A stretch of 64,000 nt of DNA from an uncultured Candidatus Peribacteria bacterium. Its GTDB lineage: Bacteria > Patescibacteriota > Gracilibacteria > UBA1369. Where the stretch lies: contig CAZGKO010000002.1 in NCBI GenBank assembly GCA_964526005.1, forward strand, positions 4,927 to 68,926, read 5' to 3'. The number at the start of each line of letters is the position of its first letter. The first letter of the stretch is position 1. The notes beneath the pieces are model-generated. The model saw only the letters and a program-made list of their open reading frames with translations. It did not search any database and was not told the DNA's origin. The translations under genes were made by a program, and so were the position numbers. Positions 583-63,086 of the stretch are shown here, in pieces.

Positions 583-2073
583 TTAATAAACCCCGGAATT
601 GTTATATAGTTTTCCCGCCTGTTTATAAATTTCCTTGGACTCATCCATGCCACCCCAAATGGAACCTGCGAACATAGCACCTTCAAGCTGACGACGAGTA
701 TTTGATTGTTCAAGTAAACGATTGGTTTCCACACCTCCTGCTACTGCCCCTGCAATCGTCCCTTCCGGTCCTCCTAGGGATCCTACTATCGCCCCAGCAG
801 CTGCTCCCTCCGCGTCAAGCAAGGCTCTTGCAATATCATGTTTTATGCTTTTTGTTCCCTGATATTCTCCAATAAGTGCATTATTGCGTGATGGATCTGT
901 AAGACGCTTGATTTTAGCAGTTGTTTGATGCCAATTAGTGGTATTAACTGCCTCAGTTGAAGGTTTTATTTTGAAAAGAAAATCCAATTGAGCATCTTCA
1001 TTATCTTTTGTATCTAATGCTTTTAATTTTTGAAATTGATTAATTAAATATCGTTCATATTTATTTTTTTGAGATAGATTCTGACTGTAAGTATCGTTCA
1101 TCAATAATAATGAAGCCATCAAACCATGTACTCGATCAAATTTAGAATATGATTTAACTACTTCTAAATAAGGTTTTAAATGCATTCCATATTGTAAATC
1201 TGTATAATCCAATCTATTACCCCATTTCTCAGAATAAAGTTTTTTAGTTTTTTGCATTTCCATATTAATCATATTTTTACCTGCTTTATCTCCTCCGTTA
1301 AAAATATGAATACCATATAGGTAACCATCTAAAACACGTCGTGTGCGATTATTGGAATTTGTTTCTTTGCTGAAAGGATTAATGCTGTCTTCATAATCGG
1401 AAATTGTAGCATTAGGCCTATCAGGATCAGTTTTTAAATCAATTTGTGCGGTTATTGCTTGTCGAGCAAGAGGGGTTTTAGGGGTAGTAAGTTGATCGTG
1501 TTTAGATTTTCCCAAATCTTTACTATGCTTTGATTTATATTGTTCTAACCGCGCTATTTCTGGATTTATTGTATTAAAATCTGCAGGTATTTCGGTTTTG
1601 GGGGGCATGTTAAATTGATCGGATGCTTTAGGTTGAATGCGGTTTTTAAATGGAGCTAAATGTCTTACAGCAGTTCTTGTTTGTTTCACAATTTGGCTTT
1701 TCTGTCGCATATAATTATCAACTAAAGAATCAATAATTGCATCACGATTAGCTTCGGTATCAATTGAAGAGTTATGAATTTTGGCGTAGACATTAGTATC
1801 TATAGATTTAAGTTTTGAACCATTCATAATATACTGAACAATTCTAGTGGTATCATTATTGTGATTTTCTTTTAATCGTTTTTTAATCTTCTTGCTATTA
1901 AAACCTTTATCGCCTAATTGTGAAATAGTGTTTGTTAAATGGGTAATTTCATCACTTGCGGTTAAATTTCTAGAATTTTCCTGACTTGAGGATCCTGAAG
2001 GCTGGTGTGCGGATTGAAAAATTAAGCGAGAAGGGACAGAAAAACTATAATTTGATTTCTTTTTATAAAACAT
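583..2073 (-). CDS. hypothetical 496-aa protein with C-terminal glycine-zipper-like segment
   Basis: Long ORF in AT-rich DNA with no signal peptide. C-terminal AAAGAIVGSLGGPEGTIAGAVAGG and GAMFAGSIWGG (nt ~646-816) are small-residue zipper repeats. No family recognised. Confidence 0.7.
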   Translation of the reverse strand: MFYKKKSNYSFSVPSRLIFQSAHQPSGSSSQENSRNLTASDEITHLTNTISQLGDKGFNSKKIKKRLKENHNNDTTRIVQYIMNGSKLKSIDTNVYAKIHNSSIDTEANRDAIIDSLVDNYMRQKSQIVKQTRTAVRHLAPFKNRIQPKASDQFNMPPKTEIPADFNTINPEIARLEQYKSKHSKDLGKSKHDQLTTPKTPLARQAITAQIDLKTDPDRPNATISDYEDSINPFSKETNSNNRTRRVLDGYLYGIHIFNGGDKAGKNMINMEMQKTKKLYSEKWGNRLDYTDLQYGMHLKPYLEVVKSYSKFDRVHGLMASLLLMNDTYSQNLSQKNKYERYLINQFQKLKALDTKDNEDAQLDFLFKIKPSTEAVNTTNWHQTTAKIKRLTDPSRNNALIGEYQGTKSIKHDIARALLDAEGAAAGAIVGSLGGPEGTIAGAVAGGVETNRLLEQSNTRRQLEGAMFAGSIWGGMDESKEIYKQAGKLYNNSGVY

Positions 2074-2084
2074 GATTATTTTTT

Positions 2085-2101
2085 TAAATCTTTATATTAT
2101 A
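2085..2101 (-). promoter_or_regulatory. -10 box plus conserved start-site element (TATAATATAAAGATTTA)
   Basis: Minus strand reads gcTATAATATAAAGATTTAAAAAAATAATC-ATG(2073). The identical 17-mer occurs at 63169-63185(+). Copies with 1-2 mismatches occur at 12310-12326, 13828-13844 and 6021-6037. Confidence 0.5.
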
Positions 2102-2136
2102 GCATAAAAAACTTTAAAATAAAAGAATACGATAGA

Positions 2137-2300
2137 GATCCTGAAACAAGTTCAGGACGAGGGGGTCTCGGTTCAGGACGAGTGGGTGAAAGAAAGGGTA
2201 GATCCTCATTTATAGTTGAAATGAGGAGGGGTGAAAGGATATATTCCAGAGGGGATTCATGGTTGAAATGGGTTCAGTTCAAAATTTGGGTTCGGCGCAT
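2137..2300 (+). repeat. purine-rich intergenic repeat element (member of a dispersed family)
   Basis: GTTCAGGACGAG occurs twice, 21 nt apart. Hairpins: tcctgaa-acaag-ttcagga and cctcattt-atagttg-aaatgagg. Shares CTCGGTTCAGRA with 32331-32342 and GATCCTG...TTCAGGA with 35660-35708. Confidence 0.4.
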
Positions 2301-2361
2301 CTATAGATTATAGCATTAATTTCAAGTTTTTTCAAATTTATTTGTGATTTTTATTTATAAA

Positions 2362-2384
2362 GCCCCCGTCCGATGGACGGGGGC
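2362..2384 (-). terminator. GC-rich hairpin downstream of 2437..3012
   Basis: gcccccgtcc-gat-ggacgggggc, a 10-bp stem about 50 nt after the stop. The U-tract on the minus strand is weak (tttataaataaaaa). Confidence 0.45.
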
Positions 2385-2436
2385 GTGAGAGAACATGACA
2401 GTGGGCGAATGAGAAACAAGATAGATTACAAATAAA

Positions 2437-3012
2437 TTATGCTTCTTGACTGTTAGATTTAATATATTTTTTGGCAACTTTGATAACCTGTTGGACTGCT
2501 TCTGGGTATGACGGTTTGGCTTTATTAATAGGAAAGATTATATAATTAAGAGCCGGATATTTTTTATCTGGATCACGTTCAATGGTGGTCACTTGAATAT
2601 TGGTCACTCTGCCAATTTCATTATAATCAGCTGAAAAAATTAAGCCTGGGAATGCTTTAATAAAATAATTAGAATTGTCCTTTTGGATCTTAGCTAAATC
2701 TGAATATTTATTTAAAATAGTAACCAAAAAACGTTCTTGCGAAATTAAATAATTATAATCAGGTTTTGAATTTGTAATATTTTCATAAATAGATTTGCAT
2801 GAAAATGAACATTCTTTTTGTCTGGCCATTTCTCTTCTTTCAATCGTTTGTTGTGAGTGATCAAGATTATGTTGAAATGCTAAACTTTCATTGCTGATTT
2901 TCCCTGTTTGATCGCGACCACTAAGTAGATTGGAAAGATTTTTCATAGATTGATTAAGCTCTGTCAGGGAAACTGATTTGTTTTTAAATTGCTTTTTAAT
3001 TGTCCCAATCAT
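2437..3012 (-). CDS. hypothetical protein (191 aa)
   Basis: ORF starts 8 nt after the stop of 3021..3470. No recognisable motifs. Confidence 0.65.
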   Translation of the reverse strand: MIGTIKKQFKNKSVSLTELNQSMKNLSNLLSGRDQTGKISNESLAFQHNLDHSQQTIERREMARQKECSFSCKSIYENITNSKPDYNYLISQERFLVTILNKYSDLAKIQKDNSNYFIKAFPGLIFSADYNEIGRVTNIQVTTIERDPDKKYPALNYIIFPINKAKPSYPEAVQQVIKVAKKYIKSNSQEA

Positions 3013-3020
3013 GTTTTCAG

Positions 3021-3470
3021 CTAGTTTTTTTGTCTTAAAGCAAAAGGATCACTGTTCTCAACTGTGTTTTGATAATAAAGTAAGGCACTAAAATGCTGTT
3101 GAAGAATGTTAAATCTGCTTTTTAACGCTCGTTCAGAACTTTGAATATCTACTTTTCGACTGGAAAAATTTTCAGGTTTAAGAATTCGCGAAATATCCAA
3201 TAGGGCTTTTTGACGAATTGCTTTTTTTTCTGTCAGATTACTCCCTCTTAAATCAGTTAAAGCAGAATCTAAACGTGCTTTAGCCGCATCAATTCTAATA
3301 GCTAAGTCGGGATTTTCTATTTTGGCACGATAAGCTAGTTCTTTCATCATTTTATTAGCTTGTTCGGGTGCCTGAATTTCGCCGCGTAAAGCTGCTGTTA
3401 CTGTGGCTTGGGCTAGAGAGAGGATGTCTTTATTTTGATGTTTTTGTGGTTTAGATGATGGTGCTCCCAT
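3021..3470 (-). CDS. hypothetical helical protein (149 aa)
   Basis: Starts 1 nt after the stop of the small ORF 3472..3876. Polar N-terminus MGAPSSKPQKHQNK, no signal peptide. Confidence 0.65.
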   Translation of the reverse strand: MGAPSSKPQKHQNKDILSLAQATVTAALRGEIQAPEQANKMMKELAYRAKIENPDLAIRIDAAKARLDSALTDLRGSNLTEKKAIRQKALLDISRILKPENFSSRKVDIQSSERALKSRFNILQQHFSALLYYQNTVENSDPFALRQKN

Positions 3471-3471
3471 A

Positions 3472-3876
3472 TTATTTATTTTTTAAAGATTTTAGTAATT
3501 TTTGTGTAATTTGTTCTTCAGTTTTTTCATATTTCTTTTCAGCCTGCTTTATTTTTTGATAAATATCTTGATGTTTTAAACTTTCCAATTCAATTTGGAA
3601 ATTAGTATAAATTTTCTTAGTTTCAGAAAGATTTTTTTTATCAATTTCAATATATTGAGCTCTTTCTGTAATTAAAGTAAAATAAAGAGACTGGGCTTGT
3701 TCAGATTCCGGAGCATGAGCGATTTTCAATGTTTCTAATAATTGTAATGGTTTTAAAGAACGAACAGCGGATGATTCGTTGATTAAATCGAGTAGATCTT
3801 GGATTGTGAAGAGATAAGTTGGCATTAGTTTATGAAGCGGTTGAGTCAATAATATCGGAGTCATAAGCTTGAACAA
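3472..3876 (-). CDS. small helical protein, family member 4 (134 aa; start uncertain)
   Basis: The track start at 3876 is TTG; the first ATG is at 3864. Shares SLKPLQL..HAP and QYIEIDKKNL with NLEPDQL..HAP and QILDLDKNYL of 5055..5378. Confidence 0.6.
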   Translation of the reverse strand: MFKLMTPILLTQPLHKLMPTYLFTIQDLLDLINESSAVRSLKPLQLLETLKIAHAPESEQAQSLYFTLITERAQYIEIDKKNLSETKKIYTNFQIELESLKHQDIYQKIKQAEKKYEKTEEQITQKLLKSLKNK

Positions 3877-3913
3877 AGCTTTTTAATTTATGATTATATA
3901 CTTATAATTTATG

Positions 3914-5050
3914 TTATGAGTTTGCTAAACGATTCCAGTTAGTGGAATAAGGCGGGTATTTTATTGTGTTTATGGCATGTTTATGAATGGATGGCATTGA
4001 TTTGCTAATGTCATCATTAGTTATTTTTTTTGGTGGTTTAGCTGATTTTTTGAGAATATTGAGAGCAGATTTAAATCTGTAAAGATTTACTTCCAACTCA
4101 TTAAGTTTCTCTATAGCCCACCGTAATTCATGGAAAGCTGTATTTGCATTATCGAGAGATGTTTTTAATAATTTTGTAGCACTGTTTAAGCTTAGCATAT
4201 TGAGGAGTTTGTTGCTGTTTCTTCTTTTCTCTGTCTGAGTGGAGTTGGTGGGGGGATACTTGTTGTTGTAATTCTTAAATGCTGATTTATATGCCTTCAT
4301 AGATGACTTCAATGATGGGAGAGCCTTGTTATAATAATCGACCTGCTTATCTTTCAAAGCATGTTGTTTTCCTTCCAAGGTGCCTAATAGCTTTTTATAG
4401 TTGTTATAAATGTGCGGGTACTTCGTTATAGCAGTTGTATTAGCCTTAATTTCTAATGACAGGTTTGTTGAAAGTAACAACTTGGCATCAAGGATCGACA
4501 TAGATTTCAACTTAATATACTCCATCTTCTTAGAAGCCTCAGTATCATTCCCCTTAGCTTTCTTAGCTTTCTTAGCTTTCTTAGCAGCCTTAGCTTTCTT
4601 AGCAGCCTCAGTAATAATCTCAGTTTTCTTAGTAGCCACTTCACTTTTTAAACCTGTTTTTTTATACCAATACTTATACTTATTTGATGGAGTGATATTA
4701 GAGTTGACCATAACTGAAGTAAGTAGATTCTTAAGTTGAGTATTTGCCTTTTTCGCATTAATGTCGTGGCTGTTTTCAGCTTGGACCGAAAGTCGATAAG
4801 CCTTCTTGAGATCAGTGATTTTCTGCTGAATTTTCTTATGACCTGAAGAAGATTTTAATTTAGCTTCAAGTTTGGCAATGGCGTTTTTAGCAAAAACACG
4901 AGTCATATTTCTTTTTTCCATAGCTGCAGTAATGATCTTTTTTGTTTCTGGAGGTTTTTTGGAAAATTTTGCTGGTTTTTCTGGATTCTTCTTTGGTGTT
5001 GGTGCTGGTGTTGGTGCTGGTTTAGGTGCTGGTTTAGGTGCGGAGCTCAT
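3914..5050 (-). CDS. Lys/Ala/Pro-rich hypothetical protein (378 aa)
   Basis: N-terminal SAPKPAPKPAPTPAPTPKK and internal KKAKAAKKAKKAKKAK low-complexity tracts. The rest is K/N-rich and helical. No signal peptide. Confidence 0.65.
   Translation of the reverse strand: MSSAPKPAPKPAPTPAPTPKKNPEKPAKFSKKPPETKKIITAAMEKRNMTRVFAKNAIAKLEAKLKSSSGHKKIQQKITDLKKAYRLSVQAENSHDINAKKANTQLKNLLTSVMVNSNITPSNKYKYWYKKTGLKSEVATKKTEIITEAAKKAKAAKKAKKAKKAKGNDTEASKKMEYIKLKSMSILDAKLLLSTNLSLEIKANTTAITKYPHIYNNYKKLLGTLEGKQHALKDKQVDYYNKALPSLKSSMKAYKSAFKNYNNKYPPTNSTQTEKRRNSNKLLNMLSLNSATKLLKTSLDNANTAFHELRWAIEKLNELEVNLYRFKSALNILKKSAKPPKKITNDDISKSMPSIHKHAINTIKYPPYSTNWNRLANS
4552..4608 (-). repeat. 9-nt coding microsatellite (AKK repeats)
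   Basis: Plus strand cttagctttcttagctttcttagctttcttagcagccttagctttcttagcagcc, encoding KKAKAAKKAKKAKKAK. Confidence 0.8.
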
Positions 5051-5054
5051 ATTT

Positions 5055-5378
5055 TTATTTAGTTAAATTTATGTTTTTTAATTGATGTTGACGATCTTGC
5101 TCCTCTTCTTTTATTTGGGAATCTTTAAGAAAATCATTGGCGGAAGAAATTTGTTGTTGTAAATCTGTAGCCGCTTGATTTGCTAAATCGTTTTGAATTT
5201 GTAAGGAATCTAAATAATTCTTATCTAAATCAAGAATTTGTTTGCTGGCTAAAATTAAAGTTTTAGCAGGTGCGTGCTGATAAAGTTCCAAAAAATATTT
5301 TAGTTGATCTGGTTCCAAATTTTGAGCAATTGGAGAGTTTTTAAGAATTCGACTGAATTGTTTATAAATTATTTTCAT
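5055..5378 (-). CDS. small helical protein, family member 3 (107 aa)
   Basis: Stop lies 4 nt before the start of 3914..5050. Start abuts the stop of 5379..6002. Shares motifs with 3472..3876. Confidence 0.65.
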   Translation of the reverse strand: MKIIYKQFSRILKNSPIAQNLEPDQLKYFLELYQHAPAKTLILASKQILDLDKNYLDSLQIQNDLANQAATDLQQQISSANDFLKDSQIKEEEQDRQHQLKNINLTK

Positions 5379-6002
5379 TTAATTTAAATAATTTTTATTA
5401 GCCTGATCACGAATATTGTGGGCAATTCCTTTAATTTCTCGACGTACGTTTTTTTGTTCAATACGTTCCCGATGTAAACGTTGTCTAACATAAGCAGCAT
5501 TATTTCCCATGTGTTCTTCAATTTTCATAATCGGCTTAATAAGTGGTACGATGGGTCTTAATTCAGGGAAAAATAAGGCACCAACTTTAATTCCATATTT
5601 TAATAGAATTTTTTCAGCCCCACCTAATTTAGCAACTTTTTTCTCCATTACTTCACCCTGTTCATCAAGATGACCTTTATAATTCAGTAATCCCACTTTT
5701 ATCATATATTCAATTGGACCACCAATTCCAGGTATACGAGCGAATGTTATTGCAGACAATTGAGCGTTTTTTGGAAGTTTGTTCCAAGCTGTACGTAATG
5801 ACTTCATGGAAGAAGTTTTGTCAATCGTGGATACAAGTTTATAAAGTATTTCTTTGTTCTTAGGATGTTTCGCAAGTTGTTCAATCTGATTAGCGATTCT
5901 CTCCTGTTTAGATTCTGGTTTTTTCATTGATTTTAGCGCTTTTTCATTTTTTGAAAAATCGTATTTAGATAATTCAGATGTTGGGGTTATATGTTCTTTC
6001 AT
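5379..6002 (-). CDS. hypothetical protein (207 aa)
   Basis: First gene after a good promoter. Moderately hydrophobic Gly-rich centre (RIPGIGGPIEYMIKVGLL, KLGGAEKILLKYGIKVGALFF). No family recognised. Confidence 0.65.
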   Translation of the reverse strand: MKEHITPTSELSKYDFSKNEKALKSMKKPESKQERIANQIEQLAKHPKNKEILYKLVSTIDKTSSMKSLRTAWNKLPKNAQLSAITFARIPGIGGPIEYMIKVGLLNYKGHLDEQGEVMEKKVAKLGGAEKILLKYGIKVGALFFPELRPIVPLIKPIMKIEEHMGNNAAYVRQRLHRERIEQKNVRREIKGIAHNIRDQANKNYLN

Positions 6003-6216: not shown

Positions 6217-7551
6217 ATGAGTACAAAATTGTTTAAGCAAGGAATTTTAGGACTTTTTACAATAGTGATTTTAGTAATTGGATTACCAATTGCCTTTGCT
6301 GCTACTGCTACAACATTCAGTAATGGAAGTATTACTCATAATCCTTATTATCCAACAAAAGGAAATGCAACTTTTAGTTATACTCTAAATAATTCCCTTG
6401 GTAATGATGTGGTAGCAAATATTTATGCTACCACCAATTTTAACCTCCCTTTGCGTACATGGACTTTTCATAGTGTAAGCTCTGGAGTACATAGTTGGGT
6501 ATGGGATGGAAAAGATACTCAGGGGAAAATTTTAGGAAATGCTTCATATGCTTTAAAAATATTCAGTGCGAACGGAAATATTCAACCTTTATCAATCAAT
6601 TTCACAATTGGTTCAGTATTAATCCCATTTCCGATACTTCCAGTTGTTCTACTTCCGACGGTTAGTAATTTAAGTGTTTCACCAAATCCTTATTATCCAA
6701 CAAAAGGAAATGCAACTTTTAGTTATACTCTAAATAATTCAAGTGGTTCTGCCAATGTGTTAGCAGATATATTTAATATTGCTAGTCCCAATAGCGTTTT
6801 ACATAGCTGGAATTTGAGTAATCAAAATTCTGGAAAAAATACTTTAATTTGGGATGGAAAAGATACTCAGGCGAAAGTTGCCACCAAGGGATCATATTCC
6901 TTAAAAGTTTATGGTCTAGATGGAAATATTCAAATTAAATCAGTACAGCAAAATTTTACAATTGACGCAGCTCCCACTCCTGCTAGCAATAATTGTGATG
7001 GTTTTAGCGATGTAGATAAGAATGATTCTGATTGTGCCGCATTCACTTATATGAAATCTATTGGAGCGATGACCGGAAATCCTAATGGAACATTGACACC
7101 GGAACAATTTTTGCAAAGAGATCAAATGGCAAAGATTGTTTTAAAAACATTTAATAAATATGATAGTTCAGTTGATTATTGTCATGGATTAAACCCTTTT
7201 CCAGATGTAACTAATACTGCATGGTCATTTCAATATATTTGTCGGGGAGTAGAACTTGGTGTGATTACTGGTTATAAAGCTGGAATAGATGCTGGATTCT
7301 ATCGACCTGGAAGATCTGTGAATAGAGTGGAATTTCTTGCGTTGGTGCTTCGAAATTTAAATGAAAATATGCCTAGCAATAATTCTTATTCTTATCATGA
7401 TGTCCCAACCGGACAATGGTATAGCGGTTATGCAAAATATTCTAAAAATAATGCTTTGTATATTGGAACCAATTTATATTCGACAGCCTATACCACTCGA
7501 AGAGAAGTGGCAGAGATTATATATAAACTACATAATCTTGGAAAGATTTAA
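6217..7551 (+). CDS. SLH-domain surface protein with two FlgD-Ig-like modules
   Basis: Signal peptide LGLFTIVILVIGLPIAFAATA. Two copies of NPYYPTKGNATFSYTLNNS...WDGKDTQ (FlgD-Ig-like). C-terminal SLH-like motifs FSDVDKND..., FPDVTNTAWSFQYI..., YHDVPTGQWYSGYAKY. Confidence 0.8.
   Translation: MSTKLFKQGILGLFTIVILVIGLPIAFAATATTFSNGSITHNPYYPTKGNATFSYTLNNSLGNDVVANIYATTNFNLPLRTWTFHSVSSGVHSWVWDGKDTQGKILGNASYALKIFSANGNIQPLSINFTIGSVLIPFPILPVVLLPTVSNLSVSPNPYYPTKGNATFSYTLNNSSGSANVLADIFNIASPNSVLHSWNLSNQNSGKNTLIWDGKDTQAKVATKGSYSLKVYGLDGNIQIKSVQQNFTIDAAPTPASNNCDGFSDVDKNDSDCAAFTYMKSIGAMTGNPNGTLTPEQFLQRDQMAKIVLKTFNKYDSSVDYCHGLNPFPDVTNTAWSFQYICRGVELGVITGYKAGIDAGFYRPGRSVNRVEFLALVLRNLNENMPSNNSYSYHDVPTGQWYSGYAKYSKNNALYIGTNLYSTAYTTRREVAEIIYKLHNLGKI
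6340..6395 (+). repeat. exact 56-nt intragenic duplication (copy 1; copy 2 at 6685..6740)
   Basis: aatccttattatccaacaaaaggaaatgcaacttttagttatactctaaataattc is identical at both positions. The surrounding domain copies have diverged. Confidence 0.9.
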
Positions 7552-10500
7552 AATGGACTTGTCGCCACAATAGCAGGTTGTTGTGACGGTGGTGGATTTT
7601 TGTGATCAATATTAGTAGAAATATTGGCTTTAATTTCTTGCGTAATAGTTATTGTACCAATACTTTTGATGTCCTCGGTAGGTGAGTGAGAATGTTTATT
7701 AATCCACTTAATTTGGAGTGCTTCGGGAGTGTTTTTAGATGGATCTACACCAATACGGTCATAATAATCCAATTTAATTTGATTACTGTATTGTTCAGAA
7801 CAATATCTTAATTGAGCAGAAGACAAATTACCATTAATTAAAACAAGATGGAAACCCGTCCCCTCGGTTGGAGGTTTGCGAAAAAGTGCGATATCATGGG
7901 AATTAATTGTTCCCTGTTTAGGATGATTGAAATCAATAGGTAAATGTTTAATAATGTTCTTTATTATTTCTGCAGATTTCATTAAATAGGTGTCTCCTCC
8001 AATATGTCCAAAAACTTCATTGATTGATTTAAGTTTAATATCCAGATTATATGTGGAAAATGTTTTGTGTTTGATTGTATTTTCATTAAGAAATTCACCA
8101 AAGGAAACATTATTGGGTAAGCCTGTTAAAGAATCATATAATTTCAATTTAATTAAATAATTATGATGAAATTCCAGAAATTTATGTCGATACATATCTA
8201 AATTTTGTCCCAGGGATTCACGAAGAGAATTAAAAAGTTTATTATTGAAAGATGTTGAATTGATTATTTTTAATAATATTTCACGAACTTTTATAGGAAC
8301 TTTGTCCAATAATGGTTTGATTTCTTTCCAACCGCGCACTTTTTCCATAACATTAAATTCGGCATGGGTTTTATCGACAAGTTCATAATAAATTTGGTGG
8401 AGATGTGTCGCCTGAGATAATTGACCGGGTTGCGGTGAGTCTGATTTAACAGTAATTGGAAGTAGATTATAAATAACTCTATTTCGTCCACTTATTTTCC
8501 CTTGCTCAAGAATCCTATCTGCGGAACGATTAAGATTATCAAAAATGCGATGTGGTGGGAATTTGGGATGATCTCCAGCAAATTCAACGATGCCAATGGT
8601 AGAACCTCCAATTGGACCACGACCTTGAGAGGTCTCATTAATGATTTGTTTGGGAGTTAAATCATATCGAATTTTACCACTTGCCTGTAAATATTCTATT
8701 AAATTTTTAACTAGATGGGGATCAATCTCATTTAATTCATGAATAATATTCTGTTGTAAATTAATTCGGAATTGATCCATTGTTTTTGCAAGTGTAACAG
8801 AATCCATACCTTTAATATAAACTTTAATTTCTTCTCCACCTTCACGAATAGCGATGGCCTCATGACCATCAGCATGTAATTTATTGACTAAATTATGAAA
8901 ATTTTCACTAATAACTTTAATTAAGACATCACCAAAATGAGTTCCTTTTAATTTATTAAAACTTCCAAAATAATCTCCATCAAATGAAGCTACAGAAAAT
9001 TTTTCTTTAGCTTTTATCCAGTTTTCTACGAATTTACTTGCATGTCGATTATAAAGTCCAGTCATTTGATCAAGGAGGGCATCGCTCCATGCTTTAGCCA
9101 TATATTCTGATTGATCTGGATTTTGTCGAATAGATTCAGATAATTTTTGAGTATTGATTTTACCATTAAGATTATGATTAAGTTCTGTTATTTTATTGAA
9201 TTCGGTACTCCCTTCAAGATAAGGTTGTAAAGGATTATCATTAGTGACTTTAGAGATTTGTTCACTGAAATATGCTTTTTTACCTATAATACTAATTTCC
9301 CTCGGAGTATTGTCGCGGGGGGTTAAATCTATTCCTTTGCCAACTTCGGAAATAGTAATTGGTTCATAATTTTGTTCGGCTGATTCTTTTTTAGTGGTTA
9401 ATGTGGAGATGTTTGTGTCTGAATCAATCCTTTCCATAACATCATGTCCCCATCTTAAACCTAAAATAGTGGCTATATCTTTGATATTAACCTGTCCATG
9501 AATTGCTCCCATAGTTGCAATGTCCACTGAATAACTGGCATAGGAATTAATTTCCAAAGCTTTTGAAAATCTGCCAGTGACTCCGAGAGCACCAAGCATT
9601 AAAAGATTTTTAGCCCATTCATTTTGCATACTTTTTCGAATATTAAAATGTCCAGAACGAATTCCTTCAATAACTGCATTGGAAGAAGTAAAAACTGTGT
9701 TTTCCACTAAAAGTCCACCTGCATAAGAAGCTAATCGACGAGCTCCAGAAATTACACCAAAAGTGGCAGCTTCTGCGGTCGCCTCCGACATTCCTATACG
9801 AAGTAACGCTCCAGAAATAGCACCTCCAGCCAATCCACTTATTCCTCCGCTAACAGCTATTATGGCAATATTGATCGGTAATTCCTGTACTAATTGATGC
9901 AATTCTTTATCGGAAATGGCAAAAGTGTTGTGACCAAATATTTTACGTGGCGCAATCCCTTCCATTTCGGCATATTCATTCCAAATCGGTTGTAAATCTG
10001 GCGGCAAAAGAGAAGTGTCTTCTTGCTGTTGTAATTTCACTTCCTGCGGACGGATCTTTTGCAACATGGCATTTTGTAATGCATTATAAGCTTTTCTGTC
10101 ATCAAAAGGATGTGACTTTACATAATCCTTTCCAAACCTTTGAAGATATTCTTGTTTGGCTTGCTTGACGCGATTGTTAAGTTCATAATGAAATGTAGGA
10201 TTGGCATCATATTTAAGTTTAAGTTGATTAATTGTAACAGATGTTTGTGCAAGACGATTAAGTCTGTGACGAAAATATAATTCAAAATATTGCTCAGCTA
10301 ATTTGGTATTACCTTGCTGATGATATTTGCGTGCCAAAGCGAGAATTCCTTCTTTTCCTTTTTCATATTCAATTTGATCTCCAATAACATCAAATTTAGA
10401 ATCAGTGGAAAATTTGAGTTGAATTTTTTCTTTACGAACAGCGGTGGCAAAATCTAAATATTTACCAGTACTAATGGGATTTTTAAGTTTAGTAATTCCA

Positions 10501-11954
10501 TTAGCGATTTGTTTATAATGAGTATAAGCTAAAGTTGTCTGGGTAGAAGGCAAACCTCGATGTATGCCATGTGAATATATAATATATTTCTGAGGAGGAG
10601 TTATTTTTGCAAATTTTTCTTTTACCTGCTGATATTCAGTTTGACAGATTTTTATTAGTAGTTGACGTGCGGATTCACGATAATCAATTTTGCCTTTAAT
10701 TGGCGGTTGTTTATTGATTTTTTCATAATAGATCAATAATAATTTTTTAGCACTAATTAAATTTTGATTAGCTAAAAGTTTCCGGGCTTGAAAAAATTCT
10801 TTATTGTCACCAGTTGCCTGTTCAACTTTTTGTAAAATTAATTGGGCACGTTGTTTATAACTTTCTTTTCTAGCGACAAGTTCAGAATTAGAGGTGAAAG
10901 CCGTTGATTTGATGTCCTGATCTAAAAATTGATGAAGAGTTTTTTGTGCTGTATCTAAATCACCCTGCTCAGCTTCTTTAATACCTCTCCAAAAATTAAC
11001 TGTGGCCTGAGGTGCGGTAAGGGCTTTAATATCTTCCTGTAATTTAATTTTAACCACCGCCATTTCTATCATGATTTGTTTTTTCTTTTTGAGTGGTAAA
11101 TTTTTGAAAGTTTTGCTGGCTTCAAATTTGGGATTTAAAGGATTCTTTAAATTTGCCCTTATCACAAAATATTTGCTGTATCCAGAAGTATATATTTTTT
11201 GATACAGCTCAATAATTAGTTTTTTCTCACCAAGAAAATCAATCTGCTCCTTTAATGTTTTCTGTCTTAATTTTAGATATTCTGAAGGAAGAGTAGAGTG
11301 CGCTTCAAGCTGGCGACGTAATTTACCTGAATTAGAAAGTGCTTGACTTAAGAAATTAGTTATTTCAGAAGAAAATATATCTGATTGACCTACTCGTGCA
11401 TCAATTTGTTGTTTAATTATTTCACGAGAATTGTTAAGTTTATTAAATTGTTTTTCAAGGATAGAAATGGTTTTAATGTTTGTTGTATATTTTTCGAGTG
11501 AAGTCCTTAGTTTCAATCCTGTAATATTTAAACTTTCATAAGATTTCGGGGTTGCAGGAGTGGAAGTGATATGGGAAGGTTTAAATATTATATGAGAATT
11601 TGAAGATTTATCAGTTGTTGCCCCATTAGTTCTTTTCTCGGCTTTAGTTTTGTTGGCTTTGGCAGCAAGTGCTTCGTTATAAAGAGCCGCGCCGCGATTA
11701 GCGGCGCGGCGGAGTAAAGAATTAATATCATTTTCCCCCTGAATAAAATATTTTTTTGCTTCTTCTGGTCCTTGATCTAATTTTTCTCTTTTTTGAAGAG
11801 TCTGAAATTCATTAACCTGATTGATAAAAATATTTTGATAATTTCCAGATGCAAAAATTCGATTTCCTATTGCGAGATTTTGTTTTTCCTTCTCTACTTG
11901 AGTAGAGATTTTAGACTGCTGGGTATCTATTTGTCTCCCCATTCCTTTAGGCAT
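7548..11954 (-). CDS. giant 1468-aa protein: helical-repeat N-region, Gly-rich membrane core, tandem GGDEF-like domains
   Basis: GGDEF domain 1 (nt ~8469-9071): DQMTGLYNRH, FDGDYFGSFNKLKGTHFGD, REGGEEI, SADRILEQGKISGRNRV. Domain 2 (nt ~7827-8135): DSLTGLPNN, LDIKLKSINEVFGHIGGD, with the signature degenerated to TEGTGF. Hydrophobic Gly-rich core INIAIIAVSGGISGLAGGAISGALL... at nt ~9450-9875. Confidence 0.8.
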   Translation of the reverse strand: MPKGMGRQIDTQQSKISTQVEKEKQNLAIGNRIFASGNYQNIFINQVNEFQTLQKREKLDQGPEEAKKYFIQGENDINSLLRRAANRGAALYNEALAAKANKTKAEKRTNGATTDKSSNSHIIFKPSHITSTPATPKSYESLNITGLKLRTSLEKYTTNIKTISILEKQFNKLNNSREIIKQQIDARVGQSDIFSSEITNFLSQALSNSGKLRRQLEAHSTLPSEYLKLRQKTLKEQIDFLGEKKLIIELYQKIYTSGYSKYFVIRANLKNPLNPKFEASKTFKNLPLKKKKQIMIEMAVVKIKLQEDIKALTAPQATVNFWRGIKEAEQGDLDTAQKTLHQFLDQDIKSTAFTSNSELVARKESYKQRAQLILQKVEQATGDNKEFFQARKLLANQNLISAKKLLLIYYEKINKQPPIKGKIDYRESARQLLIKICQTEYQQVKEKFAKITPPQKYIIYSHGIHRGLPSTQTTLAYTHYKQIANGITKLKNPISTGKYLDFATAVRKEKIQLKFSTDSKFDVIGDQIEYEKGKEGILALARKYHQQGNTKLAEQYFELYFRHRLNRLAQTSVTINQLKLKYDANPTFHYELNNRVKQAKQEYLQRFGKDYVKSHPFDDRKAYNALQNAMLQKIRPQEVKLQQQEDTSLLPPDLQPIWNEYAEMEGIAPRKIFGHNTFAISDKELHQLVQELPINIAIIAVSGGISGLAGGAISGALLRIGMSEATAEAATFGVISGARRLASYAGGLLVENTVFTSSNAVIEGIRSGHFNIRKSMQNEWAKNLLMLGALGVTGRFSKALEINSYASYSVDIATMGAIHGQVNIKDIATILGLRWGHDVMERIDSDTNISTLTTKKESAEQNYEPITISEVGKGIDLTPRDNTPREISIIGKKAYFSEQISKVTNDNPLQPYLEGSTEFNKITELNHNLNGKINTQKLSESIRQNPDQSEYMAKAWSDALLDQMTGLYNRHASKFVENWIKAKEKFSVASFDGDYFGSFNKLKGTHFGDVLIKVISENFHNLVNKLHADGHEAIAIREGGEEIKVYIKGMDSVTLAKTMDQFRINLQQNIIHELNEIDPHLVKNLIEYLQASGKIRYDLTPKQIINETSQGRGPIGGSTIGIVEFAGDHPKFPPHRIFDNLNRSADRILEQGKISGRNRVIYNLLPITVKSDSPQPGQLSQATHLHQIYYELVDKTHAEFNVMEKVRGWKEIKPLLDKVPIKVREILLKIINSTSFNNKLFNSLRESLGQNLDMYRHKFLEFHHNYLIKLKLYDSLTGLPNNVSFGEFLNENTIKHKTFSTYNLDIKLKSINEVFGHIGGDTYLMKSAEIIKNIIKHLPIDFNHPKQGTINSHDIALFRKPPTEGTGFHLVLINGNLSSAQLRYCSEQYSNQIKLDYYDRIGVDPSKNTPEALQIKWINKHSHSPTEDIKSIGTITITQEIKANISTNIDHKNPPPSQQPAIVATSPF

Positions 11955-11958
11955 AAGT

Positions 11959-12297
11959 TTAGAGATTTTTTATTTGTTTTTCGATTTTTCGTTCTGCTTC
12001 TTTCTTTTCAAGATGTTCTTTAGTGGAATGAATATTGCGAGTAGTCTTTTGAATAATTGTTTTGAGTTCACTTAAGAGCTGATGATTATTATCTTCAGCT
12101 AAAGCCAATTCAATAAATTGATCGATTTTAATATTGGAATCCCTTAATTGCTCTCCAATAAGTTGGATAATAATTGGAGGGAGTTCAGGTGAAATTGTTT
12201 TCCAATATTCTTTGTCTGTAGTTGACAGTAATATAGATTTTTGAAGATTTTTAAGTAGAATTTCATTCCAATTTGAAAGATTTTGTTTTTGAGGCAT
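11959..12297 (-). CDS. small helical protein, family member 2 (112 aa)
   Basis: Stop lies 4 nt before the start of the 1468-aa ORF. N-terminus MPQKQNL...KEYWKT parallels MASKQIL...NDIWKS of 13513..13818. Confidence 0.65.
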   Translation of the reverse strand: MPQKQNLSNWNEILLKNLQKSILLSTTDKEYWKTISPELPPIIIQLIGEQLRDSNIKIDQFIELALAEDNNHQLLSELKTIIQKTTRNIHSTKEHLEKKEAERKIEKQIKNL

Positions 12298-12418: not shown

Positions 12419-12862
12419 TTAATCCTCGAAAAATTTTAAACTTTCTATTTTAATTCTCTGAATAAGATTGTTATCAAGCTTTTGAAAATCGCTGGAATTA
12501 GCTAGAATGTCAGGGAATTGTTCTTCCATTTTATAGAGAATTAAAGCGGCGGCACCTTTTAAAAAATGATCTAATTCAGTTTTAGGAAATTGTGGACCAC
12601 TAGAAATGGGAGGATAATTACGATAAAAAAAATAAATATAAACTATTTTAAGAATAAATCTTTCTGCAGCCTTTTGTTCATTATCTGGAAATATGTTAAA
12701 AGATTCTTTTAAAATTGGAATAATGTGAATATGAAAAGCTTCTATTGACTCCTTATAGACTTTTAATTCATTAAGTTGTTTGATAATTTGGAAGATTGAA
12801 TTGATTAATAAATTATAAATAACCGGGTTTTCACGATTGTTATCTAGTCTATTTATGGACAT
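12419..12862 (-). CDS. hypothetical protein (147 aa)
   Basis: ORF with its own TATAAT (12894-12899, minus) followed by CTGTTAAGATAAATAA. No family recognised. Confidence 0.6.
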   Translation of the reverse strand: MSINRLDNNRENPVIYNLLINSIFQIIKQLNELKVYKESIEAFHIHIIPILKESFNIFPDNEQKAAERFILKIVYIYFFYRNYPPISSGPQFPKTELDHFLKGAAALILYKMEEQFPDILANSSDFQKLDNNLIQRIKIESLKFFED

Positions 12863-12934
12863 AATTTGATTATTAGGTTATTTATCTTAACAGATTATAA
12901 TCTCTTTAGCAAGGACTATCCGATATATAGAAAT

Positions 12935-13501
12935 TTAACTTGTTTTTCTGTCTTGACCCGTCAATTTCTTATAGGTTTGATCGCTCACTGATCTTAAAAA
13001 TGTTCTGGAAGAAGGATCAAAATTAGTCTCTTTACGGTAGAAATAGTGTATTTTTTGAGCTGTGGTCTCATCATAAACAGCGGCAAAATAGAAAGTTTTT
13101 CCATTAATATCAACATTTACACCAGAATTAGTGGCAAAATGTTCTTTTGGGAGAGGATTTTTTAAAGCATTGATAATTTGTCTATAAGTATTTTTATCAA
13201 TACCATGTATTGGTCTATGAGGATTCATTTTTTTACCTTCTTTATAAAAGGCAATAATGTCTGCGCGTGCACTCGCATCGGTTCTCTTAGCCTCCTGTAA
13301 AATTGATGTTTGCTGATATTTAAGCTCTATATTTTTGTTTGGAGTAGATTGTTTTGAAGTGGCGCTTAATTCCGTGGCCTTGGGAGGCATCATTTGGTCC
13401 ATTTTCTTTTTAGCCTGCTCGGCGGTTGATTGTTTCTGAGCTTCATGGGGAGCTTCAGAGGGAATAGGTTGAAAAAAATAAATTAATCGATTTTCAAACA
13501 T
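12935..13501 (-). CDS. hypothetical protein (188 aa)
   Basis: Starts 11 nt after the stop of the small ORF 13513..13818. Disordered polar N-half, no signal peptide. Confidence 0.65.
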   Translation of the reverse strand: MFENRLIYFFQPIPSEAPHEAQKQSTAEQAKKKMDQMMPPKATELSATSKQSTPNKNIELKYQQTSILQEAKRTDASARADIIAFYKEGKKMNPHRPIHGIDKNTYRQIINALKNPLPKEHFATNSGVNVDINGKTFYFAAVYDETTAQKIHYFYRKETNFDPSSRTFLRSVSDQTYKKLTGQDRKTS

Positions 13502-13512
13502 AATGTTATGGG

Positions 13513-13818
13513 TTATTGATTGTTAAAAATGGTTTTTAAAAGTTTTTCAGCCCGAGTTAAATCCTGCTTTTGTTGTGATGCTTCAGCTATATGAAGATTT
13601 TTTTTCTGTAATCTTGTTTTAGCAGTTTTTTTAATCTGTCTAATCTCAATTTGTTGATCTTGTGTTTGAATATTAATGATGGCCTGATTTATTTCCCGAT
13701 CTGATCTATCTTGATATTCCAAACAAGATTTCCAAATGTCATTTTCTTTAAATTCTGCAAAATAGAGAGAATGTTTAGCTATATTAAATAATTTTTCGAG
13801 AATTTGTTTTGAGGCCAT
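13513..13818 (-). CDS. small helical protein, family member 1 (101 aa)
   Basis: Q/K/E-rich helical ORF. Its promoter, leader and first codons are paralogous to those of 11959..12297. Confidence 0.65.
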   Translation of the reverse strand: MASKQILEKLFNIAKHSLYFAEFKENDIWKSCLEYQDRSDREINQAIINIQTQDQQIEIRQIKKTAKTRLQKKNLHIAEASQQKQDLTRAEKLLKTIFNNQ

Positions 13819-23871: not shown

Positions 23872-25368
23872 ATGAAAACTTATTTAAAAAATTATTTACA
23901 AAAAATATGTCCATCTCAGGTTGAACTTTGGGATAAGAAAATATCAAGTGAAGCGATAGCTTTTTATGCGGCTTTAGATAGCGTAGCAAAAGTCAATCCA
24001 TTGATTGCAGAGGCAATTTTACAAGAATTGAATAATCAAAGGACTTATTTAAAATTAATTGCTTCAGAAAACTATTCTTCGCTGGCGGTGCAATTGGCAA
24101 TGGGAAATTTGATGACTGATAAATATGCTGAAGGAATTGCAGGAGGACGTTTTTATGCTGGATGTGACAATGTGGATAATATTGAAAATGAAGGAATAAA
24201 ATTGGTTAAAGAACTTTTTGGAGTAGAACATGCTTATATTCAACCTCATTCTGGAGCAGATGCCAACCTAGTGGCTTTTACAGCTATTATTGCAGCACGT
24301 GTGCAAAGTGCATTTTTGAAAAGATTGGAAGTGAAAGATGTACGAAAATTAAATGAAAAGGATTGGATGGATTTGCGCAAAGAATGTGGTAATCAAAAAA
24401 TGTTAGCTTTAGGTATCACTTCTGGAGGGCATTTAACTCATGGATATAGAATGAATATTTCGGCTTTACTTTTTGAAGCACATCACTATGAAGTGTCTAA
24501 AGAAAGCGGTATTTTAAACTATGATCAGATTCGTCAACAAGCTCAAGAACTAAAACCTCTGATTTTATTAGCAGGGTATTCTGCTTATCCAAGAAAAATT
24601 GATTTTGCAAAAATGCGAGCTATTGCTGATGAAGTAGGAGCTGTGTTGATGGTGGATATGGCACATTTTGCAGGATTGGTAGCTGGAAAAGTTTTTACTG
24701 GCAAATATAATCCTGTTCCTTATGCCGATATTATTACTTCGACTACACATAAAACTTTACGCGGCCCGCGTGGGGGAATTGTGCTTTGCAAAGAATGGAT
24801 GAAAAAATTTGTTGACAAAGGTTGTCCGGCTATTTTAGGCGGGCCGCTTGTTCATGTCATGGCAGCCAAAGCCATAGCCTTCAAAGAAGCTTTGCGTCCG
24901 GAATTTCAAGAATATTCTCATAAAATTGTGGAAAACGCACAGGCTTTGGCTCAAGCTTGTATAGATGAAGGAATGATTGTTTTGACAGGTGGTACCGATA
25001 ATCATCTTTTACAAATAAATGTGTTTAAAACTTTTGGTTTAACAGGGCGACAAGCTGAAGATGCCCTTCGGGAATGTGGTTTAACCATGAATCGGAATTC
25101 CCTACCTTATGATGAAAATGGGGTTTGGTACACTTCTGGATTAAGATTGGGTACTCCCGCCGTGACAACATTGGGAATGGGTATTAATGAAATGAAATAT
25201 ATTGCTAAATTAATAATGAAAGTATTGAATAATACTAAAATTATACTGGATGACACAGGAAAGCGGTCATTAAGTAAATATGAATTGAATACGACTATTC
25301 AATTTGAAGTAAAACAAGAAGTAGAAAAACTTTTAAGTAAATTTAAACTTTATTCAGAACTGGGTTAA
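23872..25368 (+). CDS. glyA: serine hydroxymethyltransferase (long form, 498 aa)
   Basis: LIASENYSS, YAEG..GGRFYAGC, PLP-lysine motif TSTTHKTLRGPRGG. Carries extra N-terminal and internal segments relative to the ~415-aa enzymes. Confidence 0.93.
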   Translation: MKTYLKNYLQKICPSQVELWDKKISSEAIAFYAALDSVAKVNPLIAEAILQELNNQRTYLKLIASENYSSLAVQLAMGNLMTDKYAEGIAGGRFYAGCDNVDNIENEGIKLVKELFGVEHAYIQPHSGADANLVAFTAIIAARVQSAFLKRLEVKDVRKLNEKDWMDLRKECGNQKMLALGITSGGHLTHGYRMNISALLFEAHHYEVSKESGILNYDQIRQQAQELKPLILLAGYSAYPRKIDFAKMRAIADEVGAVLMVDMAHFAGLVAGKVFTGKYNPVPYADIITSTTHKTLRGPRGGIVLCKEWMKKFVDKGCPAILGGPLVHVMAAKAIAFKEALRPEFQEYSHKIVENAQALAQACIDEGMIVLTGGTDNHLLQINVFKTFGLTGRQAEDALRECGLTMNRNSLPYDENGVWYTSGLRLGTPAVTTLGMGINEMKYIAKLIMKVLNNTKIILDDTGKRSLSKYELNTTIQFEVKQEVEKLLSKFKLYSELG

Positions 25369-41866: not shown

Positions 41867-42114
41867 TTTTATATTTGTTGATGTAGTTCGTACTTTAATA
41901 ATAAAGCAAATTAGGTTTTTTTTCAAATATTTTGTGCGGATATTTTATGTGGACATTTGATGTAGACATTTGATCAACGGGTAATCAACATAGGTTTTTA
42001 AGCATTAATAACCGAGATAGGCGTATATATATGAGGTGAATATCATTTAAATTAATAATAATTTTCTATTGCCAAAAAAGACACACTTGCTTATATTTAA
42101 CAGGCAAAATTCGA

Positions 42115-61430: not shown

Positions 61431-63086
61431 ATGATCGTAAGACATAAAAATAAAATGAAATTATTTAAGAAAATTATTCTGCTAATTGTAATAATGTTTG
61501 TTATAACATCATTTTCTACTGCTTCTACAGTGCTGGCAGCAGTTGCCGATACTTCACATTTTGTTAATATTTCTCTTTCGGCTAACCCTTATTTGCCGCA
61601 AAAAGGGGAGAATTTGAAAATTAATATTGGTTTGCATGCAGCTGGTCGAATTGTGACTGCACATGTGAAAATTGTTGAGGTTTCATCAGGATATTTAGTT
61701 TTGAAAGATAATTTTAGAGCTGGTGACGGAAATAATCAACTAATATGGAATGGTAAACAAATTGGTCATAATTTATTGGCTCCCGCAGGTACATATAAAA
61801 TGACTGTGACGGGGGATTATCGTTTGAAAATTCCAGGAAATGGAATGTTGCCTGAAATTAGTAAAACATTTACAGTTCATAGTCCAGTAAATGTAAATGA
61901 TGTGATAGCATCTACTGGAAATAATATTCAAATTAGTACTAATAACACTACTAATATGAGTACGTCTTCAAATCAAAAATTAAAACCTAAGGTAGAATTG
62001 ATAGATTGTAGTACCGATAAGGCTTCATTCCAGTTGGATATTAATAATAAACCTGATGATCTTTTAACAATGAGTTGCAAATTGAGCAGTGCTGCTTTGG
62101 TAAATGTAGGAGTTTATAAAAGTGATTTTAATCCAGCTAATGCAAATAATTCTGGAAGTTTGTTAAAAACATTAGTAAGTAATAAAAAAATGAAAGCAGG
62201 TGGATTTTTTAAGATTTGGGATGGCTTGGATAATTATGATCGACCTGTTTCGATTGATAAATATGTGATTGTTGCTGAGGCAAGACTGGACTCAACTTAT
62301 TTGCCTGATATTTCTATTCAAAAATTTTCTGTGGTAGGACATTTGATTATAAATAAAAATACAAGTATCACAAATAAAAATACTATGAGCAGTGCAACTA
62401 AAATCCCATCTTCCGTAATTTCTATTAATCCAGTATCAAATTCAAATTTAAATAATATAATCAAAGTTGATACGCATACTCATGCTAATCAACTTGCGGG
62501 GCAACCAAGTAAATGTAAAGGTGTAAATTATCCTTTGGATTTGCCGAGTGGAGATTATAGAAATGCGATTATTAAGGCTTATGATCAATGTTGGGTATAC
62601 GGATTTAGTGATGGGACTTTTCGATCAAATACTTTAATGACACGATTTGATGCAACCAAGGTTATTGTGTTAGTGGCAGGACTAACTCCCAAGATTGGAT
62701 GCTATACTTCGGACTGTGGTTCACCATTTAATGATCTTGAACCATGGCAGGGTACGTGGATTCGCGCCGCCTGGGATGCGAAAATTGTTTCTGGTACGGC
62801 TCCAGATAAATTCTCTCCAAATCGACCAATCACTAGGGCTGAAGCGGCGGCGTTGATAGTTAAAGGTTTAGGGATTTCACCTCATCAAAATTGTTATAAT
62901 GCTAATTGTGGGGCAGGTTATCCTGATAATCTTTTTAATGATATTACTCAAATGTGGGAAGGTCCTTATATTAGAGCTCTTTGGGATAAAGGGATGACAA
63001 TGGCTACCGGTCAAAATACTTTTTCACCGGATATTCCAATTAAACGTGGGGAGTTTTTAGAAATGCTTTTAACAGCTAAAAAATAA
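61431..63086 (+). CDS. SLH-domain surface protein with FlgD-Ig-like modules (paralog of 6217..7551)
   Basis: Signal peptide. ANPYLPQKGENLKINI...IWNGKQ. C-terminal SLH-like repeats FSDGTFRSN..., FNDLEPWQGTWIRAAWDAKIVSG..., FNDITQMWEGPYIRALWDKGM... Confidence 0.8.
   Translation: MIVRHKNKMKLFKKIILLIVIMFVITSFSTASTVLAAVADTSHFVNISLSANPYLPQKGENLKINIGLHAAGRIVTAHVKIVEVSSGYLVLKDNFRAGDGNNQLIWNGKQIGHNLLAPAGTYKMTVTGDYRLKIPGNGMLPEISKTFTVHSPVNVNDVIASTGNNIQISTNNTTNMSTSSNQKLKPKVELIDCSTDKASFQLDINNKPDDLLTMSCKLSSAALVNVGVYKSDFNPANANNSGSLLKTLVSNKKMKAGGFFKIWDGLDNYDRPVSIDKYVIVAEARLDSTYLPDISIQKFSVVGHLIINKNTSITNKNTMSSATKIPSSVISINPVSNSNLNNIIKVDTHTHANQLAGQPSKCKGVNYPLDLPSGDYRNAIIKAYDQCWVYGFSDGTFRSNTLMTRFDATKVIVLVAGLTPKIGCYTSDCGSPFNDLEPWQGTWIRAAWDAKIVSGTAPDKFSPNRPITRAEAAALIVKGLGISPHQNCYNANCGAGYPDNLFNDITQMWEGPYIRALWDKGMTMATGQNTFSPDIPIKRGEFLEMLLTAKK

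Follow-up and report, generated by a model that had tools for sequence, protein, structure and literature searches.

A predicted chimera of a conserved N-terminal module and a tandem-GGDEF cassette in a Peribacteria genome

Two modules in one protein

We analysed a 64-kb stretch of DNA (64,000 nt; contig CAZGKO010000002.1) from an uncultured Candidatus Peribacteria bacterium, called the window below; our statements on domains and neighbouring genes cover its scanned open reading frames (ORFs). The gene of interest encodes a 1468-aa protein with a long helical region, a hydrophobic core, a linker, two GGDEF domains separated by a helical linker, and a short tail (Table 1). Upstream of it lies a small gene, here named the partner gene. 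A preliminary description of this DNA had placed the 1468-aa ORF at 7548-11954 and quoted a series of motifs from its translation. The ORF and every quoted motif are present.

A HMMER search with aa 270-1468 against 1.84 billion cluster representatives gave 163 matches at E<=1e-3, which split into separate classes. Class A consists of ~25 proteins of 1100-2800 aa. They align solely to aa 1-~840 of the target, with alignments that begin at residue 1 in both proteins, and their C-terminal regions are otherwise unrelated. We refer to the shared region as the N-module. Class B aligns solely to aa ~890/958-1452, which we refer to as the cassette. The cassette lies at varying positions in proteins of 500-5776 aa, and its flanks are unrelated to one another. 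Ordinary GGDEF proteins matched weakly and in domain 1 only. A coverage map shows sharp module edges on both sides, with N-module coverage falling steeply after ~aa 850; in this map and among the matches listed, the target is the only representative that joins the N-module to the tandem cassette. These alignments show the 1468-aa protein to be a chimera: an N-terminal module conserved in its family is joined to a mobile tandem-GGDEF cassette, and each of the two occurs separately in other large proteins. The two modules are independently evolving units.

In a profile scan of 150 listed representatives, domain 1 was followed by a ~95-110-aa spacer and then domain 2 in ~28 clusters; the two domains form a fixed cassette. 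Beyond GGDEF, the class B proteins scanned had no match above Pfam thresholds; the closest cassette relative of the target (P0002) has one weak kinase-like match C-terminal to the cassette. One cassette member (P0034) carries the organism label 'Candidatus Altimarinota', a label that NCBI places in the Patescibacteria group, and another is labelled as a Nitrospirota metagenome-assembled genome. The sole organism-named N-module relative (L001) comes from an 'uncultured Candidatus Peribacteria bacterium'; Peribacteria is a class-level group within Peregrinibacteriota.

The presence of GGDEF in such proteins is already recognised by automated annotation (JGI names). Our searches of the literature on GGDEF domains and cyclic di-GMP (c-di-GMP) in the Candidate Phyla Radiation (CPR)/Patescibacteria and on tandem GGDEF domains gave no description of the present architecture. 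The pairing of an active and a dead GGDEF domain as a cassette, its occurrence in giant proteins, and the N-module with its partner family appear to be undescribed in the papers and libraries that we searched.

The tandem-GGDEF cassette

The whole protein matched Pfam PF00990 with 64.5 bits (E=1.2e-17, cutoff 23.8) in two stretches and TIGR00254 with 63.4 bits (E=2e-17, cutoff 37.4). When PF00990 was applied to the isolated domains, domain 1 scored 41.9 bits (profile positions 1-110 of 161) and domain 2 scored 32.1 bits (profile positions 2-71). Each domain thus passes the Pfam threshold separately, in line with the tandem GGDEF-like domains of the preliminary description. A profile of the cassette family was also compared with the PDB. 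It found 3ign (2.3e-14) and PleD (5e-11) via domain 1 and, independently, DosC, SiaD, TpbB and YdeH via domain 2 (profile positions ~303-412). Alignment of the domain 1 and domain 2 profiles with hhalign gave a probability of 91% (E=9.5e-7) over the N-terminal halves. GGDEF homology is therefore far beyond chance.

The structure of the tandem, whose prediction had been proposed earlier as a check, was modelled with AlphaFold2 from a 10-sequence alignment. The model reached a predicted local distance difference test score (pLDDT) of 84.5 and a predicted template modelling score (pTM) of 0.82, with the secondary-structure elements of both cassette halves in the same order. When it was compared with the PDB using Foldseek, the top matches were GGDEF domains only (WspR, DgcB, GcbC and 3ign; E=1e-6 to 7e-8, target-normalised TM-score 0.7-0.8), showing that this confident model resembles solved diguanylate cyclases (DGCs). 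For domain 2, the fold is supported by the order of the secondary-structure elements and by a profile match that covers the N-terminal half only.

Residues were compared with those of PleD, in which D327, the I328 backbone and E370 bind Mg2+, N335 and D344 bind guanine, and K442, R446 and the F330-K332 backbone bind phosphates (PMC7288161, PMC12943098). PleD K332 is the transition-state stabiliser (PMC12943098). Domain 1 contains the motifs LLDQMTGLYNRH (960-971), FDGD (991-994), IREGGEEI (1036-1043) and SADRILEQGKISGRNR (1144-1159). Its equivalents of the PleD residues are D992 (D327), N1000 (N335), D1009 (D344), R1037 (R366), K1153 (K442) and R1157 (R446), and G1039-G-E-E-I1043 is the equivalent of the GGEEF signature, including the metal-binding Glu (PleD E370). 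Domain 1 can thus be classed from its residues as a catalytic-type GGDEF domain: beyond the FDGD, GGEEI and C-terminal motifs noted in the preliminary description, it holds the full catalytic-type residue set. In all 22 cassette members aligned, the equivalents of D327, D329, N335, D344, R366, GGEE, K442 and R446 in domain 1 are invariant, which argues for retained catalysis; loss of the catalytic residues in relatives had been named beforehand as an outcome that would speak against the assignment. The K332-equivalent position is occupied by Gly997 in the target and varies in the family (Lys in 10, Gly in six, Arg in four and Ser in two of the 22 members). The GGEEI form of the signature occurs in five of the 22.

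A helical insertion of ~45 aa lies between alpha3 and the next strand of domain 1 and is present family-wide; it had been noticed before and given as ~50 aa. Direct reading of the sequence also bears out the earlier statement that an RxxD I-site is missing: none occurs at the domain 1 position, where residues -9 to -6 from the first signature Gly read G-H-E-A, and domain 2 has no RxxD. In Hypr GGDEF domains, which produce cyclic GMP-AMP, Ser replaces the base-selecting Asp at the PleD D344 position. No Ser was found there in either domain of the 22 cassette members, all of which have Asp; the guanine-specific type is therefore expected.

Domain 2 contains the motifs YDSLTGLPNN (1273-1282), NLDIKLKSINEVFGHIGGD (1303-1321) and FRKPPTEGTGF (1358-1368). 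Here D1305 corresponds to PleD D327, K1309 to K332, N1312 to N335 and D1321 to D344. All 22 members share the equivalents of K332, N335 and D344, and 20 of them have an acidic residue at the D327 position. In place of the signature, the target reads TEGTGF and the family Q-K-G-[AS]-x-F (consensus QKGANF); the acidic pair is never present. The C-terminal helix with the phosphate-binding K442 and R446 is absent from domain 2 of both the target and the cassette members. Domain 2 also has a family-specific W[IL]xxN motif (W1417 in the target), and a C-terminal Trp occurs in 21/22. These residues mark domain 2 as a degenerate GGDEF domain whose base-binding pocket is conserved, and it may bind a guanine nucleotide without activating it. 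The preliminary description had correctly called this copy degenerate and named TEGTGF. Its further statement that the second metal Asp is replaced by Lys needs correction: the Lys in question (K1307) lies at the D329 position, which is not listed among the metal ligands in the reviews consulted (PMC7288161, PMC12943098). Taken together, the family pattern indicates purifying selection, apparently on catalysis in domain 1 and on the nucleotide pocket in domain 2, and also points to the two domains working as a unit.

The N-module, the partner gene and their surroundings

The target N-module shares 23-32% identity with P0003-P0023 and others (blastp E down to 1e-113). It matched no Pfam family and had no PDB sequence-profile match. 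An AlphaFold2 model from 25 sequences (pLDDT 72.4, pTM 0.60) is confidently all-alpha at aa ~140-670 and of low confidence in the core at aa ~700-850 (pLDDT 30-55). Foldseek detected no significant similarity of this fold in the PDB (best E=0.25, TM-score<=0.12) or in BFVD (best E=0.08). The ~690 N-terminal residues had been described as helical and TPR-like. The model agrees with the former; TPR identity was rejected, with TPR profiles below their cutoffs (E=0.21-5) and TPR proteins among the Foldseek matches only at E>=0.25 and TM-score<=0.12. We also rejected a phage or mobile-element origin, as no relative was found in IMG/VR, and a likeness to tape-measure or minor-tail proteins (BFVD E>=0.08, TM-score ~0.1).

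Hydropathy analysis is in accordance with the Gly/Ala/Ser-rich hydrophobic core reported for this protein. The target has a strong transmembrane-like peak at aa 692-718 and weaker peaks, and in the family average a single strong peak (692-710) is likewise joined by weaker ones, with conserved Gly, Glu and Phe positions. The protein is probably anchored in the membrane via this core. The C-termini of class A are diverse and mostly unannotatable: weak kinase-like matches were found in P0008 and P0016, DUF6687 in P0007, and a weak 2H-phosphoesterase-like match at locus L006. The N-module may be a platform for differing C-terminal enzymatic regions.

The stop codon of the partner gene lies 4 nt before the ATG of the 1468-aa gene. 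Pattern scans based on a 6-sequence N-module alignment gave one GTDB locus (L001) and six metagenome loci. At six of these seven loci (L001-L005 and L007), an ORF of 105-111 aa was found 8-12 nt upstream on the same strand. The encoded proteins match the 112-aa protein of the window in pairwise blastp (E=1e-5 to 9e-16). A partner-family hidden Markov model built without the window sequence also recovered the 112-aa protein (E=1.3e-21), and other ORFs of the window were not significant. The partner protein has no Pfam or PADLOC family match. N-module and partner form a conserved two-gene unit. Beyond the two genes, nothing in the neighbourhood is conserved among the seven loci, which have unrelated housekeeping neighbours (SecA, sugar transferase, RNase J). 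Coupling of the 1468-aa gene to one of several small helical family members had been proposed, and the 112-aa gene is indeed directly upstream. The idea of such a family in the window was rejected: the small neighbours share no significant similarity, and only the 112-aa gene belongs to the partner family.

Two of the related loci show peculiarities. The sole exception among the seven is L006 (132-14305), where the N-module protein exceeds 2932 aa and the usual ~110-aa partner is replaced; an unrelated 192-aa ORF and a 1561-aa ORF precede the N-module protein. At L005 (14831-17268), genes for an HTH_3 regulator and a Phage_CRI-like replication protein lie directly downstream of the gene for the N-module member P0010. 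This pair may be a small integrated element beside the N-module gene.

Table 1. Coordinates of the 1468-aa gene, its parts and other features in the window
Feature	Position	Strand	Remarks
1468-aa ORF	7548..11954	-	ATG start; stop codon 7548-7550
N-module, helical part	9885..11954	-	aa 1-690; conserved from residue 1 (MPxExDxxIDxxQ...)
N-module, Gly/Ala/Ser-rich hydrophobic core	9435..9884	-	aa 691-840; ends with family motif LGL[KR]xGH
Linker	9108..9434	-	aa 841-949; similarity to P0002 starts at ~aa 890
GGDEF domain 1	8466..9107	-	aa 950-1163; predicted catalytic-type
Helical inter-domain linker	8160..8465	-	aa 1164-1265; length conserved (~95-110 aa) across the cassette family
GGDEF domain 2	7635..8159	-	aa 1266-1440; degenerate
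Unstructured C-terminal tail	7551..7634	-	aa 1441-1468; pLDDT ~33-51 for model residues 501-528, <50 for 506-528
Partner gene, 112-aa helical protein	11959..12297	-	member of a ~105-112-aa family directly upstream of N-module genes
SLH protein with two FlgD Ig-like domains	6217-7551	+	converges on the 1468-aa gene
Second SLH protein	61431-63086	+	N-terminal similarity to the SLH protein at 6217-7551
T4SS pilin PF18895	49427-49798	-	123 aa; E=7.6e-8

The start of the 1468-aa ORF is ambiguous (window 11940-11960, minus strand). The ORF begins with the ATG at 11954; the database copy of the protein (P0001) has 1464 aa and starts at Met5. A clear Shine-Dalgarno sequence was not seen before Met1, and AAAGGA lies immediately 5' of the Met5 ATG. 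At its 3' end, the ORF overlaps the convergent SLH/FlgD_ig gene by 4 nt. Runs of small and medium helical ORFs rich in Lys and Gln flank the locus (583-6002 and 12419-13818, both on the minus strand). They match no Pfam family and have no detectable mutual similarity. One of them (13513-13818) weakly matches PADLOC PDC-S62 (E=4.5e-4). Membership in a defence system was rejected, with no PADLOC match for the target, the partner and seven of eight neighbours.

The window has a GC content of ~33%. As previously described, no EAL, HD-GYP or PilZ gene was found among its scanned ORFs; a search of the 64 kb for a c-di-GMP riboswitch was also negative. Other genes encode FtsA, FtsZ, a stand-alone 5'-3' exonuclease, AcrB, HlyD and an ATP synthase a-subunit, the last heading a likely ATP synthase operon. 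With the PF18895 pilin, there is a hint that this genome encodes a type IV secretion or conjugation-like apparatus. The gene content of the window looks CPR-like and, with the organism labels of the relatives, suggests a genome of the CPR type. Serine hydroxymethyltransferase (498 aa; 23872-25368, plus strand) apparently has ~80 extra residues, and RNase J (713 aa; 32431-34572, plus strand) has a ~160-residue N-terminal extension relative to its Pfam domains; the RNase J of L007 is longer still (841 aa). A 1613-aa ORF with a TTG start (37085-41926, minus strand) lies in the only region of raised GC content (0.385-0.40 vs ~0.33). Its sole Pfam match is a weak bacterial TSP3 repeat; the product may be a large protein of the cell surface, or the gene may have been acquired laterally.

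Possible mechanisms and comparison with known systems

The reading that we favour, tentatively and at somewhat less than an even chance, is that of a membrane-anchored modular protein, in which the N-module is a platform and the cassette is a self-contained, GTP-using unit with domain 2 as a second site in cis. The N-module would work with the small helical partner encoded upstream, as a common platform carrying different C-terminal enzymatic regions. Domain 1 would bind GTP and Mg2+ as a catalytic-type DGC domain. In domain 2, the former active site would bind a guanine nucleotide without activating it and would give a second nucleotide half-site in cis, resulting in an intramolecular pseudo-heterodimer. 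The product would be c-di-GMP or a related di- or oligonucleotide derived from GTP, for example pppGpG. Symmetrical formation of the two bonds is beyond one catalytic centre, and synthesis may therefore be sequential or the product may be linear pppGpG. Both the cooperation of the domains in cis and the identity of the product are inferred.

DGCs are normally regulated by sensor-driven homodimerisation. A second site in cis would explain how the cassette can lack an upstream dimerising sensor and work in many protein contexts; in the target, domain 1 is preceded by a ~100-aa low-complexity linker and not by a coiled-coil stalk. A pseudo-dimer and a nucleotide sensor were the two mechanisms suggested in the preliminary description. 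They are still the best pair, to which the invariance of the domain 2 base residues and the fixed spacing appear to add support. If the cis arrangement is true, a single chain with an active and a dead GGDEF domain would be a different answer to the dimer requirement, and its product may differ.

Several points weigh against the favoured reading. With one catalytic centre the canonical two-fold mechanism fails, so that a sequential route or trans-dimerisation of domain 1 is needed. The target has Gly997 at the position of the transition-state stabiliser Lys332, and this position is variable in the family. Only one span is clearly transmembrane-like and a signal peptide is lacking, so that the cassette could come to lie outside the cell, where it would be without GTP. 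Finally, no c-di-GMP receptor, phosphodiesterase or riboswitch was seen in the 64-kb window.

A possible but rather unlikely alternative gives domain 2 the role of an allosteric GTP sensor, with c-di-GMP made by domain 1 after trans-homodimerisation, for example through N-modules clustered in the membrane. Nucleotide occupancy of domain 2 would then gate domain 1, as in GGDEF-EAL phosphodiesterases. The degenerate GGDEF domain of Caulobacter PdeA/CC3396, which binds GTP and activates the neighbouring EAL domain, is a precedent. The residues are compatible with such a role, because domain 2 retains the base-binding positions without the catalytic signature and domain 1 is equipped with all the residues of a normal DGC half-site. 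However, domain 1 is not directly preceded by a dimerising input domain or a stalk, and neither domain has an RxxD product-feedback site. Moreover, the cassette occurs in many unrelated protein contexts and should therefore be self-sufficient.

In the whole protein, the N-module may serve endogenous signalling as a membrane platform, or it may be a delivery platform for variable cargo. We consider it improbable that N-module and partner are an export or host-delivery platform and that the GGDEF cassette is cargo acting in or on the host of an episymbiont, e.g., by raising host c-di-GMP. This idea draws on the conserved N-module with its sharp boundary and very diverse C-termini, and on the small helical partner gene directly upstream in almost all loci. 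For Esx/type VII secretion system (T7SS) effectors, the same small-upstream-gene arrangement with targeting factors is described (PMC13622651). Some of the relatives with organism labels belong to CPR lineages that live as symbionts, and one strong transmembrane segment without a signal peptide fits poorly with a cytoplasmic C-terminus. On the other hand, there is no homology to LXG, WXG100 or a known secretion signal, and in the window and at the seven loci neither an immunity-like gene downstream nor secretion-apparatus genes in the vicinity are conserved. The N-modules are mutually 23-37% identical, which points to an old family and not to a recent swapping of cassettes. Typical toxin tips differ from these C-termini, which are long and have multiple domains, and variable outputs on a shared platform equally fit ordinary signalling proteins.

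A more far-reaching combination seems quite improbable to us. N-module and partner would be an unrecognised platform for protein delivery or membrane insertion in Peregrinibacteria-type CPR, with interchangeable enzymatic cargo, and the cassette would be a single-chain, asymmetric synthase with a catalytic and an acceptor palm, as in Cas10. Its product, c-di-GMP or an oligonucleotide of a non-canonical kind derived from GTP, would be made in or at the host cell and would reprogramme host behaviour for the episymbiont.

To our knowledge, the interaction of ultra-small symbiotic bacteria with their hosts is largely unknown, and a shared platform with swappable enzymatic heads would be a concrete candidate for a symbiont-host interface. 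The N-module and its small partner define an uncharacterised two-gene unit, whose organism-named relative belongs to Peribacteria (Peregrinibacteriota), a lineage counted within the CPR.

Least likely of all, the whole cassette would be catalytically inactive and act as a scaffold or as a receptor for a nucleotide or c-di-GMP. In favour of this, Gly997 at the Lys332-equivalent, the Ile at the end of the signature, the large insertion in domain 1 and the lack of other c-di-GMP genes in the window could be cited, but the metal, base and phosphate ligands and GGEE are invariant in 22/22, GGEEI recurs in 5/22, the Lys332-equivalent varies among otherwise intact-looking members, and there is no I-site for binding c-di-GMP.

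Comparison with known systems places the parts of this protein differently. For the N-module and partner, T7SS LXG/Lap proteins and polymorphic toxins offer a similarity of arrangement only, with a small helical gene upstream, a conserved N-terminus and a variable C-terminus. Neither the N-module nor the partner resembles LXG, WXG100 or Lap families in sequence or in profile searches. Compared with LXG systems, the N-module is ~4 times longer and has a hydrophobic core, and the C-terminal regions span 500-2000 aa. In contrast to T7SS and polymorphic toxin loci, no immunity gene or secretion ATPase was found nearby in the window and at the seven loci.

Domain 1 has the fold and the catalytic-site residues of PleD, WspR, DgcB and GcbC (PF00990) except for the Lys332-equivalent. 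It shares the GGEE signature variant with PleD, and Asp at the base-selecting position predicts the use of GTP. It differs from canonical DGCs in lacking the RxxD site, in the Gly at the Lys332 position and in the ~45-aa helical insertion after alpha3; most cassette members also have GRG rather than GRN. Furthermore, the cassette has no upstream dimerising sensor and a degenerate second GGDEF domain always comes next.

Among degenerate GGDEF domains, PdeA/CC3396, PopA and PelD are the nearest counterparts of domain 2, which likewise lacks the signature and retains the guanine-binding Asn and Asp. This is the pattern expected for a domain that would bind a nucleotide without turnover. PopA and PelD are c-di-GMP-binding domains. 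Since domain 2 has no RxxD, c-di-GMP binding of the PopA/PelD type is not predicted. In contrast to PdeA, domain 2 is paired with an active GGDEF domain and not with EAL. It is also truncated, as the last helix, which would carry the phosphate-binding Lys and Arg, is missing.

The pairing of one complete and one degenerate copy in a single chain is also seen in the two Palm domains of Cas10 and in C1/C2 of mammalian adenylate cyclase. This is an analogy only: no Cas10 or class III cyclase was among the best 50 Foldseek matches of the cassette, and unlike Cas10, the target has no HD domain and no CRISPR context. In Cas10 and mammalian adenylate cyclase, the degenerate copy contributes part of a single composite site.

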